A DNA stretch of 64,000 nucleotides from Clostridia bacterium. Its GTDB lineage: Bacteria > Bacillota > Clostridia > Oscillospirales > Acutalibacteraceae. Where the stretch lies: assembly GCA_017507805.1 (NCBI GenBank), contig JAFWAC010000001.1, positions 23,695 through 87,694 on the forward strand, written 5' to 3'. Shown here in pieces: positions 6,286 through 58,471 of the stretch; position 1 is the first letter of the stretch, and the number at the start of each line of letters is the position of its first letter. The notes beneath the pieces are model-generated. The model was given only the letters and a program-made list of their open reading frames with translations. It searched no databases and had not been told where the DNA came from. Both the position numbers and the translations under genes were made by a program.

Positions 6286-6723
6286 ATGGTTTGTACTTTT
6301 TTTGGGCACCGAACGATAGATAAAGGAATAGAGCCGACCTTGCGGTCAATCCTTGTGGATTTAATAGAAAATAAAAATGTAGAAAAGTTTTATGTTGGAA
6401 ATCATGGTTCCTTTGATTCTTTAGTAATAAGAAATCTTGAAGCATTAGAAACCATTTATCCGCATATTAAATATTCAATCGTACTTGCGTATTTAACGGG
6501 AAAAAAGAGTGAATATCATTGCTTTGATTTTTCTCGTACGCTTTATCCTGACGGGCTTGAAAAAACCCCTCCAAAATTTGCGATAGATAAGCGCAACCGT
6601 TGGATGATTGAAAAATCAGATTTTGTTGTAACCTATGTAAAAAGGTTTGGCGGTGCGTATAATTACAAAGAAATTGCTGAAAAAAAGGGAAAAATTATAA
6701 TTAATATAGCAGACTTAATTTAA
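6286..6723 (+). CDS. SLOG-superfamily protein, DUF1273/YpsA-like (paralog of 57790..58224)
   Basis: 145 aa. FFGHR N-terminus, FYVGNHGSFD, YPHIKY..VLAY, AIDKRNRWMIEKSD. About 53% identical to the 57.8-kb paralog by manual alignment. Confidence 0.75.
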   Translation: MVCTFFGHRTIDKGIEPTLRSILVDLIENKNVEKFYVGNHGSFDSLVIRNLEALETIYPHIKYSIVLAYLTGKKSEYHCFDFSRTLYPDGLEKTPPKFAIDKRNRWMIEKSDFVVTYVKRFGGAYNYKEIAEKKGKIIINIADLI

Positions 6724-6733
6724 TAAAGCTTTT

Positions 6734-6799
6734 GTAGGGGCAGGCGTCCTCGACTGCCCGTCAAACGCATCTAAACCTTTTCAGACAGCCCGTCCCTAC
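6734..6799. repeat. GTAGGG...CCCTAC palindromic element, copy P1-a (right arm degenerate)
   Basis: GTAGGGGCAGGCGTCCTCGACTGCCCGT ... CAGACAGCCCGTCCCTAC. Related to the copies at 42283..42355 and 51399..51471. Confidence 0.7.
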
Positions 6800-6838
6800 A
6801 AAAAATCTCTCCCTGATAAACACAGGGAGAGATTTTTG
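6800..6838. terminator. hairpin terminator, homologous to 5961..5995
   Basis: AAAAA-ATCTCTCCCTG-ATAAACA-CAGGGAGAGAT-TTTTT, an 11-bp perfect stem. Confidence 0.6.
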
Positions 6839-6856
6839 TTATTTACATTTGCCTAT

Positions 6857-7069
6857 AAATTATAGTTTAGCGGTTCGAATGTTTTTCACAACCATTAGCT
6901 CCCTCTGATGAGGGAGCTGTCACCGCAAGGTGACTGAGGGAGAGAAAAAACAAGGATTTATCTGTGTTTTAGCCTTTTCTCTCCCTCCGAGTTTGCTCCG
7001 CAAACCCACCTCCCTCGTCAGAGGGAGGCAAGGTTTCAGCTTTCTATTTAGCGCGGCAAACTATAATTT
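6857..7069. mobile_element. MITE-like unit bounded by the AAATTATAGTTTAGCG terminal motif, carrying palindrome S-a
   Basis: AAATTATAGTTTAGCG at 6857..6872 and an imperfect inverted copy CAAACTATAATTT at 7057..7069. No coding capacity. Confidence 0.55.
6898..7028. repeat. S-element copy a: ~130-nt multi-hairpin palindromic repeat
   Basis: GCTCCCTC-TGAT-GAGGGAGC, GTCACC-GCAA-GGTGAC, long stem GAGGGAGAGAAAA/TTTTCTCTCCCTC, GTTTGC-TCC-GCAAAC, CCTCCCTC-GTCA-GAGGGAGG. Other copies at 31042..31170 and 58288..58420. Confidence 0.85.
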
Positions 7070-7147
7070 ATATGTGTTTACACCATCGGGGTATTAGGTT
7101 GCGATTTTGCAGAATAAAAAGGCGGATAGACCGCGGGGGCACCCCGC
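7070..7147 (-). repeat. repeat module M (copy 1, inverted relative to 35607..35692)
   Basis: Reverse complement GCGGGGTGCCCCCGCGGTCTATCCGCCTTTTTATTCTGCAAAATCGCAAC..ATACCCCGATGGTGTAAACACATAT matches 35607..35692 and part of 57327..57364. Abuts the glmS stop codon. Confidence 0.75.
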
Positions 7148-8970: not shown

Positions 8971-9086
8971 AAAAAATACACCTTTCCGCTTGTATGGACG
9001 GAAGGGCGCAAAAAATAAACGCACAAAACTGCCGCAAGGGTATAATAACCCCTTGTGTTCCGTACATACAAAAAAATATTTTTTTA

Positions 9087-9230
9087 CAGCATAGCGAACA
9101 CCTTTGTTCCGAAATTACTTTCGGGTTTTGTGCATCCGTTTACGACATGTCTGCCGTGGGGCATCCGCCGAATCTTTCGATGAACCCCAACCTCGTCAAC
9201 CGCTATGCCATATGTACGGTCCCGGCGCTT
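9087..9230 (-). promoter_or_regulatory. glmS ribozyme (GlcN6P-dependent self-cleaving riboswitch)
   Basis: Minus strand reads A/GCGCCGGGACC...GGTTGACGAGG...TCGAAAGATTCGGCGGATGCCCC...CGGAACAAAGG. This matches conserved glmS ribozyme core blocks in the glmS 5' UTR. Confidence 0.88.
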
Positions 9231-9324
9231 GAAATTAATTAAACGGTTTTTTATCCTTTCATTTTATTTTATGGCATATAATCCGCAAACCGAGCATTTT
9301 TTATTTTTTACTCGATTATACTAT

Positions 9325-29880: not shown

Positions 29881-30930
29881 TTAAAAAACAAGTGATAAAA
29901 TATCCTTTGCGGCTATCAGCACCATTAGTCCCATCAAAATCGCAAAGCCAACCGCGTGAACTGCCGCCTCGTATTTCTGAGGGACAGGCTTTCTGAAAAT
30001 CATTTCAATCAGTATGAAAAGCAGTCTGCCGCCGTCAAGGGCAGGAATGGGCAACAGATTAAAAAGTCCCAGATTAATGGTTATAAGCGCCATAATCGGC
30101 AACAGGTTCTGAAGGCTTTGCTTTGCCGCATTGCTGATTGCCACCGTCACCCCGACAGGGCCGGAAACCGCGCTGATACCGTATTTCCCGCTTAAAAGGT
30201 CTATGAGACTGCGCCAAACCACCGCGCAATAGGAAACCGCGGTTTTCACCGTCTGCTTTATATATGAGCCGACCGTTTTCTTTATCCCGTAAACCTTGAA
30301 ATCCACCGTAAGGTAGGTTATGCCCTGCTCCTCGGCAGTATCAAAGGAAACTCCTCTGAGCAAAACCTCTTTCCCGTCACGAAGGACGGTTATATCAAGC
30401 TTTCCGTCCTTAACATTTGTAAAGGCATAGCTCAAATCGTAGGTGGTGAATATTTTTCTGCCGTTTACTTCGGCAATGCGGTCGTTTATTTCAAGCCCCG
30501 ACTGCTGACTCACAGCATTTTCGTCAAACTCGGCTATAACAGTCGAGGTGAAAGCCTTTGACGGAGCCAATATTACTGCCACAATTATAAGTCCCAACAA
30601 AAGGTTGAAAAGCGCGCCCATTACCACAATAATAAATCTGCGCCACGGCGCTTTATTGCAAAATGCCCGTGTGTCGGAGCTTGTTTCGTCCTCTCCCTCC
30701 ATTGCGCAATAGCCGCCCAAGGGAATGAGGTTAAGAGCATATTTTGTCTCCCCCCACTGTTTAGCAAAGAGCTTCGGACCGAAACCTATGGCAAATTCGT
30801 TGACACGGACGCCCATAAGCTTTGCGGCAATGAAATGCCCGAATTCGTGTATTGTTATAAGCAGAATAAAAAGAAGTATCGCCACAAGATATGGCCAGAC
30901 ATTGTTCCAAAGGTTTAAAATCGTAATCAC
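29881..30930 (-). CDS. rseP: RIP metalloprotease RseP (M50 site-2 protease)
   Basis: 349 aa. HEFGHF zinc motif. PDZ-like insert. NLLPIPALDGG. Confidence 0.93.
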   Translation of the reverse strand: MITILNLWNNVWPYLVAILLFILLITIHEFGHFIAAKLMGVRVNEFAIGFGPKLFAKQWGETKYALNLIPLGGYCAMEGEDETSSDTRAFCNKAPWRRFIIVVMGALFNLLLGLIIVAVILAPSKAFTSTVIAEFDENAVSQQSGLEINDRIAEVNGRKIFTTYDLSYAFTNVKDGKLDITVLRDGKEVLLRGVSFDTAEEQGITYLTVDFKVYGIKKTVGSYIKQTVKTAVSYCAVVWRSLIDLLSGKYGISAVSGPVGVTVAISNAAKQSLQNLLPIMALITINLGLFNLLPIPALDGGRLLFILIEMIFRKPVPQKYEAAVHAVGFAILMGLMVLIAAKDILSLVF

Positions 30931-31041
30931 CTACAAAAAGTTAATTAAAGGCTTATCGCCCCAGACTGTAGACAAAGCCTATTTTAGGTGGTTGTCTCAC
31001 TAAGGTTAAGATACGCAATTACCGAAGCGGTTTCAACATTG

Positions 31042-31170
31042 GCTCCCTCTGATGAGGGAGCTGTCACCGGAAGGTGACTGAGGGAGAGAAAAACAAAAAT
31101 TCATCGCGGTTTCACCCTTTCTCTCCCTCCGTCAAAACTTCGTTTTGCCACCTCCCTCGTCAGAGGGAGG
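31042..31170. repeat. S-element copy b
   Basis: Same module order as 6898..7028. Interior hairpins GTCACC-GGAA-GGTGAC and CAAAAC-TTC-GTTTTG. Lies between dxr and rseP. Confidence 0.85.
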
Positions 31171-31185
31171 CTGTGTTTGGCGTGT

Positions 31186-32319
31186 CTATACTTTTAGGCT
31201 TATCGCCCGTGCCGCTTTATCGGCTTCCAAAATATCCTCTAAAGTAAATTCTCTTTTATTATTCACATTAACAAGGGCTTTTTCCACCAAATCGGCAATT
31301 TGCAGGAATTTAATTTTGCCCTCTAAGAAAAGGCGCACCGCCTCTTCGTTAGCTCCGTTTACAGCGGTCGGCGCAAGACCGCCCCTGTTTATTGCCTCGA
31401 TACAAAGTCCCAAGCAACGGAAGGTATCCAAGTCGGGCTTTTCAAAGGTAAGGGTGCCAATATCCGAAAGGCTTAAATGCTCAAAGGCAAAGTCGCTTCT
31501 TTCGGGGTAGGTCAGGGCATACTGAATGGGCAGGCGCATATCGGGTGTGCCAAGCTGTGCAATAACTGCACCGTCCGACAGCTCAACTCCCGAATGAACA
31601 ATACTTTGTCTGTGCACCAGCACCTCAATCTGTGAAGCCGTAACACCGAAAAGATGCACCGCCTCAATAACCTCAAGTCCTTTGTTCATCAAGGTTGCCG
31701 AGTCAATGGTGATTTTAGCACCCATCGACCAATTCGGATGATTAAGCGCTTCTTTCACGGTCACATTTTCCAAATCGGCGCGTTTTTTGCCGTAAAAAGG
31801 GCCGCCCGAAGCGGTTAGTAATATTTTTTTCAGGGATTTTTCGGGTGTGCCCTGCAGGGATTGAAAAATTGCCGAATGTTCACTGTCCACCGGCAGAATT
31901 TTAACACCCTTTTCTCTTGCGGCTTTGTTTACAAGCTCGCCGCCTGTGACAAGGGTTTCCTTATTTGCAAGGGCGATTGTTTTGCCTGCCTCGATTGCGG
32001 CAAGTGTGGGGCGAAGCCCTGCGATACCCACAATGGAGTTAAGCACAATCTCGCCCTCGCCCTGTGCGGCGGCGCAAACGCCCTCCACACCCGACAGCAC
32101 CTTTATATCGGTATCCTTAAGCTTTATTGCAAGCTCCCTTGCGGCATTTTCATTAAAAACCGCAACAACCGCGGGCTTGAATTCACGCGCCTGTTTTTCC
32201 AAAAGCTCTGTGTTTCTACCTGCCGCCAACGCGGTAACGCGGTAGCCGTCCCTGCGGCAAACCTCAAGCGCCTGAGTACCGATTGAGCCGGTAGAGCCTA
32301 AAATTATCAAGCTTTTCAT
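31186..32319 (-). CDS. dxr: 1-deoxy-D-xylulose-5-phosphate reductoisomerase
   Basis: 377 aa. GSTGSIG NADPH motif. Dxr family throughout. Confidence 0.96.
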   Translation of the reverse strand: MKSLIILGSTGSIGTQALEVCRRDGYRVTALAAGRNTELLEKQAREFKPAVVAVFNENAARELAIKLKDTDIKVLSGVEGVCAAAQGEGEIVLNSIVGIAGLRPTLAAIEAGKTIALANKETLVTGGELVNKAAREKGVKILPVDSEHSAIFQSLQGTPEKSLKKILLTASGGPFYGKKRADLENVTVKEALNHPNWSMGAKITIDSATLMNKGLEVIEAVHLFGVTASQIEVLVHRQSIVHSGVELSDGAVIAQLGTPDMRLPIQYALTYPERSDFAFEHLSLSDIGTLTFEKPDLDTFRCLGLCIEAINRGGLAPTAVNGANEEAVRLFLEGKIKFLQIADLVEKALVNVNNKREFTLEDILEADKAARAISLKV

Positions 32320-35593: not shown

Positions 35594-35883
35594 AAATTAT
35601 AGTTTAGCGGGGTGCCCCCGCGGTCATTCCGCCTTTTTATTCTGCAAAATTACAACACGATACCCCGATGGCGTAAACACATATAAATTATAGTAGGGGA
35701 CGATGGGTCTCGTTGCGGCTCGGTCACTTTTTGGCTCTGACAGTCCACCGGACTGTCATTCACTACCAAAAAGCCGCTTCGCTACCCACATCGTCCCGCT
35801 TGGTTTCTGCAAATTCTGGCGGGACGATGTGGGCATCGTCCCCTACAAAATGTCAATTTAATTAGTGCGCTAAACTATAATTT
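35594..35883. mobile_element. composite MITE-like mosaic bounded by perfect 16-nt inverted termini
   Basis: AAATTATAGTTTAGCG at 35594..35609 and CGCTAAACTATAATTT at 35868..35883. The interior holds module M (35607..35692, ending in AAATTATAGT) and palindrome P2-a. Confidence 0.7.
35693..35846. repeat. GTAGGGGAC...GTCCCCTAC palindrome P2-a, left arm split by a 79-nt nested palindromic insertion (35706..35784)
   Basis: Apart from the insertion, the arms match the perfect copy at 57402..57476. The loop is in the inverted orientation with one base difference. Confidence 0.8.
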
Positions 35884-36035
35884 GTTTTTTGCTTCGCCGT
35901 CACATACTGTGTTTTTGCCGAAGGCTTAAATGCAAAACAGCAATATTTCTAAAGTTTTTGTCAATAAAACCTATTGATTTACGGGGGATATAGCATTAAA
36001 ATTAAAATAAAATAATTTTAAAGGGAGTGCTTGTT

Positions 36036-40630: not shown

Positions 40631-40853
40631 TAAAAAAATAACGCCCTGAAAAAATTTCAGGACGAATAAAAATCCGTGGTACCACCCGATTTCGGGAAAA
40701 TCCCGCACTCAAAACCCGTAACGAGGGTGACGGCAATCCCTTTCGGGCGCAGCTGAGGAAAGAGCTTCACAGGGCTTTAAAGGTGGATTTTCACCGGCCA
40801 TCCACTCTCTTGACACTTAAAACCGAGCTACTTATTTTCCCTTATCGCTTTTA
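40631..40853 (-). promoter_or_regulatory. T-box leader (tRNA-sensing riboswitch), probable Ala (GCU) specifier
   Basis: Minus strand has AGTA S-turn, AGAGAG, GGTGAAAA distal loop, T-box sequence AATCGGGTGGTACCACGG and terminator CGTCCTGAAATTTTTTCAGGGCG + T-run. GAA-GCU-C lies in the specifier position (codon at 40765..40763). Confidence 0.8.
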
Positions 40854-40860
40854 CAAATTA

Positions 40861-41289: not shown

Positions 41290-41310
41290 TATAAATAAAT
41301 ATCAAAATTT

Positions 41311-41516
41311 TTGTCCTGCGCTGTTCGCGGACCGTGACTTATATAACCCTACAACCTTTTTAAAAGGGACCACAGCTCGTACGGCGGGCTTGCAGACCTC
41401 CCGCGGCGGTGCCGAGTTCGGAAGAAGGGAGCGCGAAGCCGTACGGCCGGTACCCACCTGGCTTACGCTAGGTTATCTTAAGCACATTACGGCAGCGCGG
41501 GACACTCGTGTTTTTT
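41311..41516 (+). ncRNA. ffs: signal recognition particle RNA (SRP/scRNA)
   Basis: Closing helix GTCCTGCGCTG / CAGCGCGGGAC. Domain IV-like GAGTTC-GGAA-GAAGGGAGCGC resembles CAGGUCC-GGAA-GGAAGCAGC. Long helix CGTACGGC../..GCCGTACG. T-run at the 3' end. Confidence 0.7.
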
Positions 41517-42282: not shown

Positions 42283-42355
42283 GTAGGGACAGACGTCCCC
42301 GACTGTCCGTTGATTCAGATGTGTTTTACGGACAGTCGGGGATGCCTGTCCCTAC
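42283..42355. repeat. GTAGGG...CCCTAC palindrome P1-b (27-bp arms, ~19-nt loop)
   Basis: GTAGGGACAGACGTCCCCGACTGTCCG ... CGGACAGTCGGGGATGCCTGTCCCTAC between convergent trmO and the DD-carboxypeptidase gene. Confidence 0.85.
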
Positions 42356-51361: not shown

Positions 51362-51495
51362 AAAATATAGTTTGATAAACAAATCAAAATGATATATCGT
51401 AGGGGCATGCGTCCCCGAACGCCCGTTAGTTACGATGAATTTTGCGGACAGTCGAGGACACCTGTCCCTACAAATAATCCCAATAAACTATAATT
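51362..51495. mobile_element. MITE-like unit (AAAATATAGTTTG ... AAACTATAATT) carrying palindrome P1-c (51399..51471)
   Basis: Degenerate terminal motifs at 51362..51374 and 51485..51495. The interior is GTAGGGGCATGCGTCCCCGAACGCCCGT ... GCGGACAGTCGAGGACACCTGTCCCTAC. Confidence 0.6.
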
Positions 51496-57250: not shown

Positions 57251-57326
57251 TTTAAAATTCCTTCCTGATAATTATACAAATATATTTTAACACTTTAAAG
57301 CGAATTTTGCAAGGGTTTATTATTCA

Positions 57327-57501
57327 AAATTGCAACATGATACCACGATGGTGTGAACATATATAAATTATAGTTTAGCGCACTAATTAAATTGACATTT
57401 TGTAGGGGACGATGCCCACATCGTCCCGCCAGAATTTGCAGAAACCAAACGGGACGATGTGGGCATCGTCCCCTACGAACAACCCCAATAAACTATAATT
57501 T
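57327..57501. mobile_element. composite repeat: partial module M + AAATTATAGTTTAGCG (57365..57380) + perfect P2-b palindrome + AAACTATAATTT (57490..57501)
   Basis: 57365..57401 is the exact reverse complement of 35847..35883. 57327..57364 matches module M. Confidence 0.75.
57402..57476. repeat. P2-b: perfect 27-bp-arm palindrome GTAGGGGACGATGCCCACATCGTCCCG-N21-CGGGACGATGTGGGCATCGTCCCCTAC
   Basis: The arms are exact reverse complements. The loop CCAGAATTTGCAGAAACCAAA is the reverse complement, with one base difference, of the loop at 35799..35819. Confidence 0.9.
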
Positions 57502-57521
57502 ATTGCAAGAAAGATTTTTGG

Positions 57522-57789: not shown

Positions 57790-58224
57790 ATGACGGTTAC
57801 CTTTTTCGGGCACAGAATAACACCAAACGAAATAAAACCAAGGTTAATGCTGGTTTTGAGGGATTTAATAGAAAACAGCCAAGCAGACACCTTTTATGTT
57901 GGCAACCAAGGCGATTTCGATCGGTTGGTAAGGCAAAGCCTCAGGGAGCTTGAAAAGCAATATCCGCATATCAGGTACAATGTAGTCCTTGCTTATATGC
58001 CAATCCGAAGCGGGTTAGACGAGTGTCGCGATTTTTCGGACACAATCTACCCTGAAGGTCTTGAAGCTGTATCCCCGAAAAATGCAATCGACAGGCGCAA
58101 CCGATGGATGCTTGAAAAATGTGACTGTGCGGTGGTTTATATCACAGGTGTCGGCAATGCGAGTACATACGGGGAGCTTGCCGAGAAAATGGGCAAGACA
58201 GTGATTAACATTGCAGAAAAATAA
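57790..58224 (+). CDS. SLOG-superfamily protein, DUF1273/YpsA-like (paralog of 6286..6723)
   Basis: 144 aa. TFFGHR, FYVGNQGDFD, YPHIRY..VLAY, AIDRRNRWMLEK. GGGGG RBS. Confidence 0.78.
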   Translation: MTVTFFGHRITPNEIKPRLMLVLRDLIENSQADTFYVGNQGDFDRLVRQSLRELEKQYPHIRYNVVLAYMPIRSGLDECRDFSDTIYPEGLEAVSPKNAIDRRNRWMLEKCDCAVVYITGVGNASTYGELAEKMGKTVINIAEK

Positions 58225-58230
58225 TAAAAT

Positions 58231-58458
58231 AAAGGGCTGTCTAACAAAGGTTAAAATGCACAAATTAACGGAGTAGCTTCACCACCGGCTCCCTCTGACG
58301 AGGGAGCTGTCGAGTGAAACGAGACTGAGGGAGAGAAAAAACTACACTAATTGTAGAAATTTCACTTTTTCTCTCCCTCCGTCACGGCCACACCGTGCCA
58401 CCTCCCTCGTCAGAGGGAGGCAGGGTTTGTGCACAAACCTTTAATGAGACAGCCCTTT
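58231..58458. repeat. 228-nt compound palindrome filling the SLOG-3/symporter intergenic region; core is S-element copy c (58288..58420)
   Basis: Outer arms AAAGGGCTGTCTAACAAAGGTTAAAATGCACAAA (58231..58264) and TTTGTGCACAAACCTTTAATGAGACAGCCCTTT (58426..58458) enclose S-c. Confidence 0.8.
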
Positions 58459-58471
58459 AATATTTTGAATT

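Follow-up and report, generated by a model that had tools for sequence, protein, structure and literature searches.

A 64,000-nt stretch of the genome of a Clostridia bacterium (Acutalibacteraceae; contig JAFWAC010000001.1, positions 23,695–87,694), referred to here as “the window”, contains three copies of a ~130-nt palindromic repeat that we call the “S-element”. S-elements are probably gene-less, internally shortened copies of a ~445-bp cassette in which a DUF559 nuclease gene lies between inverted ends with the sequence signature of a DNA triplex, i.e., derivatives similar to MITEs (miniature transposable elements with inverted repeats) or REPINs. S-elements would tie together two long-standing orphans: the DUF559 protein family and the BoxC/PIT triplex repeats.

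A preliminary description of the window reported the three copies and a common five-hairpin layout. All three are present exactly where it placed them (6898–7028, 31042–31170 and 58288–58420), all on the + strand and all intergenic. Searching for the terminal hairpins with no mismatches gives six matches over the two strands, compared with none expected from shuffled sequence, and 18 of the 21 GAGGGAG/CTCCCTC heptamers in the window fall inside the three S-elements, with 4.1 expected window-wide. Single-strand folding of copy 1 reproduces the five hairpins exactly (+ strand, −43.9 kcal/mol, z = −9.9; − strand, −42.9 kcal/mol, z = −8.6), and the variable-hairpin sequences that had been quoted match those in the copies.

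Each S-element consists of two inverted end modules, or “halves”, that fold on opposite strands. From the outside to the centre, on its own strand, a half comprises a (C/A)WWG flank, hairpin 1 (S-CTCCCTC-TGAY-GAGGGAG-S'), hairpin 2 (free sequence with GNA/GNNA loops and G.A mismatches), and a third purine block, GAGGGAGAGA. Halves come in two types. The “GC-type” has a G-C closing pair and CTGTC...GACT junctions; the “CG-type” has a C-G closing pair and GTGGC...GACG junctions. Every complete unit pairs one half of each type, and the conserved unit extends ~2–5 nt past each terminal hairpin, with the flank (C/A)WWG-S. A covariance model built on 111 halves, a check that the preliminary description had proposed, finds six half-units in the window at 67–75 bits and nothing else above 17 bits. 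The modules are as follows.

6893..6948, + strand: copy 1, GC-type (left) end module, with flank CATTA (covariance-model match of 67.3 bits, fold, alignment)
6898–6917, + strand: copy 1, hairpin 1 of the GC-type module, GCTCCCTC-TGAT-GAGGGAGC
6918–6935, + strand: copy 1, hairpin 2 of the GC-type module, GTCACC-GCAA-GGTGAC
6936–6948, + strand: copy 1, third purine block of the GC-type module, GAGGGAGAGAAAA
6949..6974: copy 1, centre, a variable remnant at the position of the DUF559 open reading frame (ORF) of full-length cassettes
6975..7033, − strand: copy 1, CG-type (right) end module (covariance-model match of 73.3 bits, fold)
31037..31092, + strand: copy 2, GC-type end module (covariance-model match of 70.3 bits)
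31117..31175, − strand: copy 2, CG-type end module (covariance-model match of 72.4 bits), followed by GTGAAA
58283..58339, + strand: copy 3, GC-type end module (covariance-model match of 67.0 bits)
58367..58425, − strand: copy 3, CG-type end module (covariance-model match of 75.0 bits), followed by GTGAAA

Read on the − strand, the CG-type half of copy 1 is CCTCCCTC-TGAC-GAGGGAGG, then GTTTGC-GGA-GCAAAC, then the third block GGAGGGAGAGAAAA. The long central stem of copy 1 (GAGGGAGAGAAAA/TTTTCTCTCCCTC) is formed by the centre together with both third blocks. Upstream, at 6801–6837, a terminator-like hairpin, AAAAATCTCTCCCTG...CAGGGAGAGATTTTT, has arms like those of the central stem but in reversed order, a likeness that may be a coincidence or a relic. 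In copy 3, hairpin 2 of the GC-type half has tandem G.A mismatches and a GAAA loop. Two structural claims of the preliminary description need amending. First, the whole unit was described as a large palindrome; the ends are indeed inverted repeats of each other, but the inner hairpins differ between halves. Second, GNRA loops were noted in the first variable hairpin; loops of this type do occur, but the description is too narrow, as loops across the family are GNA or GNNA.

Structure of the end module

Hairpin 1 closes with G-C in 53 halves and with C-G in 55, and its loop is TGAY in 134 of the ~170 hairpins counted, even though the search pattern left the loop free. Hairpin 2 keeps its fold while its sequence changes, as had been suggested from the three window copies: across the 111 halves, six of its seven pairs are altered on both sides, and 92.8% of cells are paired. 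Covariation in hairpin 2 is 0.332, as compared to 0.079 in shuffles and 0.05–0.07 with slid partners. Mismatches on the own strand of each half are predominantly G.A/A.G (93, versus 4 C.T/T.C), with G.T also outnumbering A.C (15 versus 3). Similarly, 75 of the 111 loops are of the G..A type (e.g., GAA, GCA, GTA and GCAA, often as a GCGAAGC mini-hairpin), whereas the complementary T..C type never occurs. These biases hold separately for GC-type and CG-type halves. Because the G.A mismatches and GNA loops sit on each half's own strand, the two halves fold on opposite strands. Therefore, a single RNA does not explain the unit, but a two-fold symmetric DNA element can. The idea of one structured RNA, raised in the preliminary description, is contradicted both by these strand-specific features and by the covariation of the third block, which follows a triplex code reported not to form in RNA (PMC4666352).

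The heptamer GAGGGAG is identical in both directions; hence, the standard sequence conceals the relation between the third block and hairpin 1. This relation is revealed by seven variant classes of the hairpin 1 purine arm. Where the arm is GAGGGGG, the third block is GGGGGAG (17 distinct cases). The other arms and their respective third blocks are AGGGGAG and GAGGGGT, GGGGAAG and GATGAGG, GAGGGAA and ATAGGAG, AAGGGGG and GGGGGAT, GAGGAAG and GAAGGAG, and GGAGAAG and GATGAGG. The third block mirrors the purine arm, T being permitted at A-T pairs, which matches the antiparallel purine-motif triplex code (G.G-C, A.A-T and T.A-T). Over eight sequence classes, 54 of 56 positions fit in mirror register, as opposed to 36 of 56 in direct register; for changed hairpin 1 positions, the third block tracks 12 of 12 in mirror register and 3 of 12 in direct register. 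When third blocks are permuted among classes, only 2 of 40320 arrangements reach a fit of 54. The base before the third block also fits the code, being G after a C-G closing pair and T after G-C. A strict triplex scanner matches all six window halves, with no matches in 396 kb of control DNA. We considered whether the third block could instead pair with the hairpin 1 arm by Watson-Crick rules and rejected this, since the variants contradict it; at locus L008, the central-stem partner remains standard, and no Watson-Crick pairing explains the relation.

The sequence of the end module thus bears the signature expected of a purine-motif DNA triplex formed within one strand. We infer that the hairpin 1 duplex would be bound by a third strand that folds back, with hairpin 2 serving as the linker, and the chain topology of the module is right for such a fold. 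Three-way covariation of this kind would be natural, in vivo-relevant evidence for purine-motif triplexes.

Gene-bearing cassettes and gene-less copies

S-elements belong to a large family. In a scan that took one genome per species, at least 120 genomic stretches have the pattern, mainly from Oscillospiraceae, Ruminococcus, Acutalibacteraceae and other gut Clostridia; among the matches listed, a few are from Bifidobacterium stellenboschense. The preliminary description, which had called for copies beyond the window, is upheld on this point. There are 23 complete units, with identical module order and in either orientation. The covariance model finds 230 halves in 688 kb of selected loci but no more than a single weak one in unselected related loci totalling 396 kb, so the density of halves is lineage-specific. 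In eight gut metagenomes, assembler word depth on the S-element core is tens of times or more that of flanking genes, and many family matches are located at contig ends; units of this type break metagenome assemblies in gut Clostridia. A phage collection had no match to the S-element, and S-element sequences were not found in any paper of the literature searched.

Several loci have unusual arrangements of halves. In L005 (700–1008) and L062 (1385–2624), halves and solo hairpin 1 units are joined by their outer flanks into tandem or composite arrays, and Logan joints connect 6919 to 7006 and 31169 to 31043. These arrays and joints suggest recombination between heptamer repeats. The Klebsiella pneumoniae plasmid pKP13f (L212; NZ_CP004000.1, ~194050–194220) and seven other Klebsiella/Enterobacter conjugative plasmids carry a GC-type half and a variant CG-type half (CTTCCTC/GAGGAAG/GAAGGAG), downstream of sul2 and adjoining rsmH and tgt. 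The region has the look of a captured segment, which may have originated in a gut Firmicute.

A search for a gene with matching hairpin ends, which the preliminary description had recommended, identified a DUF559 nuclease ORF between the two modules. At six loci (L061, L108, L120, L059, L205 and L211), the same two halves lie ~445 bp apart around the ORF, which belongs to DUF559 (Pfam PF04480; E = 1.5e-27). The ORF begins 5–7 nt past the CG-type third block, meaning that this block is its ribosome-binding site (Shine-Dalgarno sequence). At the other end, the ORF reads through the GC-type half, which folds on the opposite strand and gives the protein its C-terminal tail. Among the matches listed, a DUF559 gene lies in or beside the modules at 8 of 120 loci.

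The cassette protein matches the structure of a Neisseria DUF559 protein (3HRL), and four active-site-like residues (D50, E61, D63 and H67) are invariant across 30 relatives. A model of the protein has a Vsr-like core (PD-(D/E)XK) and a disordered tail. The structures closest to the model are 3HRL and the catalytic domain of the homing endonuclease I-Bth0305I (3R3P is among the matches; TM-score of 0.80 against an I-Bth0305I-type structure, normalised on the target), followed by Vsr, the R2 endonuclease domain and TnsA. A protein database search yielded 5460 clusters at E ≤ 1e-10, of which the best 120 are ~80% identical to the query. Of the 103 readable C-termini in these 120 clusters, at least 70 end in SLPQSAxLTAPSSEGA or a one-residue variant; all of the 60 most frequent tail forms (70 proteins) carry the motif or such a variant. 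This tail is the translated GC-type half, and it marks the edge of the element, since the sequence diverges after it. In gut Clostridia, annotated proteins acquire spurious C-terminal tails from the units.

Units of intermediate length connect the cassettes and the short copies: units of 115–194 nt and of ~445 nt share the same ends. Locus L078 has kept ~45 nt of the 3' end of the ORF (76/82 identical), and in copies 2 and 3 of the window, the GTGAAA that follows the ribosome-binding site is a remnant of the cassette start. Because parts of the ORF survive in L078 and similar units, as does GTGAAA in copies 2 and 3, it is the short forms that derive from the gene-bearing ones and not the reverse. 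Derivation by internal deletion holds for the family through L078; it is weaker for the window copies, where only GTGAAA is left. Aligning the very short window centres to the ORF was rejected as unreliable.

It could be argued that the element acts at the level of RNA. The modules would be the 5' untranslated region, involved in translational control and stability, and the 3' end of the DUF559 mRNA, and S-elements would be decaying pseudogene stubs with no function as DNA. The third block is a good Shine-Dalgarno sequence 5–7 nt ahead of the start codon, copy 2 is co-transcribed in the dxr-rseP operon, and covarying hairpins would also be expected of an RNA. We nonetheless consider this explanation very unlikely, because, in the GC-type module, the G.A mismatches and GNA loops are found on the ORF's antisense strand, Watson-Crick pairing does not account for a mirror-image third block and RNA is reported not to form purine-motif triplexes (PMC4666352), the identical short form is present at many loci, and there is no Rfam match. 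The Rfam matches in the window are limited to T-box, glmS and 6S, with nothing real on copy 1 at E ≤ 10. The glmS ribozyme (9085–9240, −) sits upstream of glmS, the T-box (40655–40854, −) is a leader, and the 6S RNA is at 41310–41507 (+); all three are ordinary Firmicute features. Public sequencing runs locate the organism of the window in gut metagenomes. A hammerhead ribozyme, considered for CUGAUGAG in hairpin 1, was rejected, with no stem II/GAAA arrangement and no Rfam match.

Insertion sites and outer repeats

Copy 2 lies between dxr (31186–32319, −) and rseP (29881–30930, −), in a conserved cdsA-dxr-rseP-ispG-polC operon. The dxr-rseP gap is 255 nt here, compared with mostly 2–100 nt in ~75 related loci (RseP 43–80% identical), none of which has a GAGGGAG motif in the gap. 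Judged by this comparison, copy 2 is an insertion into a conserved operon. The C-terminal codons of Dxr are altered at this locus. The insert is bounded by a 13-nt direct repeat, AGGCTTATCGCCC (30949–30961 and 31196–31208), which may reflect either duplication of the target by the composite or a rearrangement; the second copy of AGGCTTATCGCCC would restore a dxr ending in ...AISL*. Across 26 units, there is no direct repeat at any offset or length that would indicate target-site duplication; the two flanks of one unit resemble each other weakly (p ~0.06).

The core units stand as the preliminary description laid them out, but copies 2 and 3 sit in longer, 230–260-nt composites with an outer inverted repeat. 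The extents of the longer regions are as follows.

30949..31208: whole dxr-rseP insert, with outer arms (~30986–31021 and 31176–31197) around the copy 2 core
58230..58459: copy 3 composite, with the outer inverted repeat TAAAGGGCTGTCTAACAAAGGTTAAAATGCACAAA (58230–58264) / TTTGTGCACAAACCTTTAATGAGACAGCCCTTTA (58426–58459) around the core
6855..7071: copy 1 context, with the core between ATAAATTATAGTTTAGCGG (6855–6873) and TTTAGCGCGGCAAACTATAATTTAT (7047–7071)

Composites of the copy 3 type are found at unrelated loci in four related genomes (L021, L034, L029 and L095; 80–84% identity). The same short form with the same outer sequences at unrelated loci means that the short form is copied as such. 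Outer inverted repeats were rejected as a general feature; they occur only in the window's lineage and are absent from most members of the family. An inverted pair of the ATAAATTATAGTTTAGCGG/TTTAGCGCGGCAAACTATAATTTAT type also brackets another palindromic repeat in the window, at 35680–35885 and 57362–57503.

The window has other repeats near the S-elements. A conserved module of ~60 nt, TTTATTCTGCAAAATTACAACACGATACCCCGATGGCGTAAACACATATAAATTATAGT, occurs at 35636–35694, 57316–57374 and, inverted, 7063–7125; it is followed by an inverted pair, ATAAATTATAGTTTAGCG / CGCTAAACTATAATTTAT, that brackets either S-element copy 1 or a GTAGGG repeat. The module and inverted pair could represent a hotspot of shared insertion, or else a third element. 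The GTAGGG repeats are a second palindromic family, GTAGGG(G/A)C...CCCTAC, which is REP-like with a GTAG head (6734–6791, 42283–42352, 51399–51470, 35693–35850 and 57403–57476). Word depth for this family in gut metagenomes is also very high (6696–6783), and L034 has a copy with 85% identity. The small genes just upstream of copies 1 and 3 (6286–6723 and 57790–58224) are paralogues, 53% identical, with no Pfam or NCBIfam match. S-elements also lie immediately downstream of a third homologue, in L021 (4516–4944). Similarity is far higher among the repeats than among the genes they adjoin, which suggests a preferred landing zone.

The positions of the copies bear on two other explanations. First, S-elements could be selected, non-mobile cis elements that benefit the host, such as a bidirectional terminator, an insulator, a nucleoid-protein site or a recombination hotspot. 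The copies are intergenic, two of the three lie between convergent genes, and TMECO repeats, discussed below, have been tied to local genome instability (PMC4666352). By contrast, the cores have no consistent terminator-like tail, the gene upstream of copy 1 has its own terminator (6801–6837), copy 2 sits in an operon whose relatives are without the insert, and the repeats are linked with a nuclease gene across phyla; we regard this explanation as highly improbable. A terminator or promoter role was also rejected after scans gave nothing consistent.

Second, the nuclease gene could be the newcomer. DUF559 would then be a free-standing homing-endonuclease gene that invades pre-existing hairpin/triplex repeats, and S-elements would be landing pads that spread by other means, either by recombination of the host or through a transposase that works on the outer inverted repeats. 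Homing would fit the fold, which most resembles the catalytic domain of I-Bth0305I, the lack of target-site duplication on insertion, the joint spread of the core and the outer inverted repeat in the window's lineage, and the DUF559 genes wedged in operons of other phyla. However, the ORF pieces in L078-like copies and the GTGAAA in copies 2 and 3 indicate that the short forms descend from gene-bearing ones, and most family members are without outer repeats. Overall, homing into existing repeats is unlikely, although less so than an RNA-level or cis-acting role.

DUF559 genes in other phyla and comparison with known systems

Intrastrand-triplex repeats of the BoxC/PIT/TMECO kind were reportedly described by Hoyne et al. 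in 2000. In these repeats, a pyrimidine block is followed by a purine block, which a 3-nt loop separates from a second purine block (PMC4666352). Holder et al. (2015; PMC4666352) count 23 TMECO copies in E. coli K-12. There is circular dichroism, nuclear magnetic resonance and in vivo footprint evidence that TMECO forms a purine-motif intrastrand triplex, a structure stated not to form in RNA; TMECO is found in >260 genomes, often as inverted A+B pairs, and has been associated with local genome instability (PMC4666352). Neither a partner protein nor mobility is named in that paper, and ycjD, DUF559 and endonuclease do not appear in it (PMC4666352). Similarly, our literature search found no paper connecting DUF559 or ycjD with repeats.

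DUF559 genes outside the Clostridia are also accompanied by triplex-type motifs. In E. coli, a TMECO lies ~190 nt downstream of ycjD, a DUF559 gene, on the gene's own strand. In eight of eight DUF559 loci from plasmids and chromids (Synechocystis, Pseudanabaena, three Deinococcus, Azospirillum and two Sphingomonas), triplex-type motifs are present, inverted, at both gene ends; the background of the relaxed triplex scanner is 6 matches in 396 kb of control DNA. A 49-kb stretch of Sphingomonas parapaucimobilis has one pair of motifs 444 nt apart around DUF559, between pntAA and pntAB, and six gene-less pairs 112–131 nt apart, each of which fills an intergenic gap. The S. parapaucimobilis junctions (GGGGAGG-TGGCAGGCC-GAA-GGCCTGACG-GAGGGG) show visible homology to their Clostridial counterparts. 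Within 47 kb of Deinococcus, no more than four motif clusters occur, of which two directly flank the DUF559 gene and two are a gene-less pair.

We propose, tentatively and with somewhat less than even confidence, that BoxC/PIT-type repeats have their missing partner enzymes in the DUF559 nucleases (E. coli YcjD and its tens of thousands of relatives), and that nucleases and repeats together make up a pan-bacterial, previously unrecognised class of minimal mobile elements with ends that are recognised as folded single-stranded DNA and that leave gene-less copies of 120–130 nt, such as the S-element. If true, DUF559, a very large family that includes E. coli YcjD and has no assigned role, would acquire a function open to testing. 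BoxC/PIT/TMECO, catalogued since the 1990s with neither an origin nor a partner enzyme, would gain both, and a further type of mobile element would be defined by a non-B DNA fold of its ends rather than by their sequence.

Several points weigh against the reading of S-elements as gene-less copies of a mobile DUF559 cassette, or against its extension to other phyla. The triplex in S-elements is read from sequence only. There are few variant classes (seven), each of which may stem from one ancestral event, and the third block is under several constraints because it is also a ribosome-binding site and an arm of the central stem. There is no DUF559 gene within the 64-kb window, and no transposition, excision or cleavage event was observed. 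The exact ends of the element come from conservation alone, since no same-species empty site was found: public runs of related strains had none, with contigs breaking at the high-depth repeat, and exact-protein look-ups returned the same locus every time. In the window's lineage, the unit that spreads includes the outer inverted repeats, so a different enzyme could move it. The E. coli link is a single locus, with a chance of ~0.5–1% that was estimated after the fact. Lastly, the Deinococcus modules face the opposite way (from the gene to the outside), meaning that one geometry is not valid for all.

Gene-less derivatives have spread, and copy 2 was inserted; the mode of movement, with DUF559 as the putative mover, is our inference. 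The ends would act as folded single-stranded or extruded DNA, made up of a hairpin, a GNA hairpin and a fold-back triplex. The DUF559 nuclease would recognise or nick these ends, in trans for gene-less copies, and copying would follow a homing- or repair-like route through host repair or replication, rather than DDE-type cut-and-paste. The constraints act on the outside-to-centre strand of each end; as a speculation, a central break followed by 5'-to-3' resection would be one geometry that exposes exactly these strands.

Among the closest known systems are the BoxC/PIT/TMECO repeats. The preliminary description recognised no described repeat or RNA family; there is indeed no Rfam match, but the end module has the published BoxC/PIT/TMECO block architecture. 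The two share three blocks on one strand, with the second purine block in mirror register, and both are intergenic, multi-copy and often arranged as inverted pairs of two subtypes, in many phyla. They differ in three ways. First, BoxC/PIT/TMECO loops are short (1–6 nt), whereas only the first S-element loop, at 4 nt, is in this range; the second is a covarying hairpin of 15–30 nt (19–22 nt in the window; full family range, 12–32 nt), as opposed to 3 nt. Published searches, which used loops of 1–6 nt, would therefore miss the S-element. Second, the arms are 7–8 nt in the S-element and 9 in BoxC/PIT/TMECO. Third, S-element repeats are the ends of a DUF559 gene cassette.

The REPIN-RAYT system offers a parallel in organization. 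In both cases, gene-less doublets of inverted short palindromes are spread across intergenic DNA, and a small partner gene is flanked by the same repeats, inverted, with no target duplication (PMC3116915, PMC3337134); recognition is probably through hairpins on single strands. However, the S-element has no GTAG head, its flank consensus being (C/A)WWG-S, and its ends have the triplex signature. Its partner is a Vsr-fold DUF559 protein (PF04480) rather than a Y1 (HUH) transposase, and the partner gene exists in thousands of variants.

The preliminary description also considered a protein-recognised, single-stranded hairpin end of the IS200/IS605-PATE type. Recognition of this sort is close to the view favoured here, and the two systems have in common their small size, subterminal hairpins, absence of target duplication and non-canonical DNA-DNA contacts in end recognition. 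Nevertheless, the IS200/IS605-PATE end hairpins are both on the top strand, whereas those of the S-element are on opposite strands; in addition, the S-element family is without TnpA or TnpB, and its gene encodes DUF559, not a Y1 enzyme.

Vsr-like (EDxHD) homing endonucleases, e.g., I-Bth0305I, are another case of this nuclease fold in the service of a selfish element (PMC3239194, PMC2677866). They reside in introns or inteins and home to one gene (PMC3239194, PMC2677866), whereas the DUF559 cassette is free-standing and intergenic, has structured ends, and leaves gene-less copies. Finally, classical MITEs (Correia, RUP and ERIC) resemble S-elements in their length of ~130 bp, terminal inverted repeats, intergenic location, derivation by internal deletion and co-transcription with neighbouring genes. 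They differ in that S-elements have no target-site duplication, with the 13-nt repeat around the copy 2 composite as a single case, and in that the S-element parent encodes a DUF559 nuclease and no DDE transposase.

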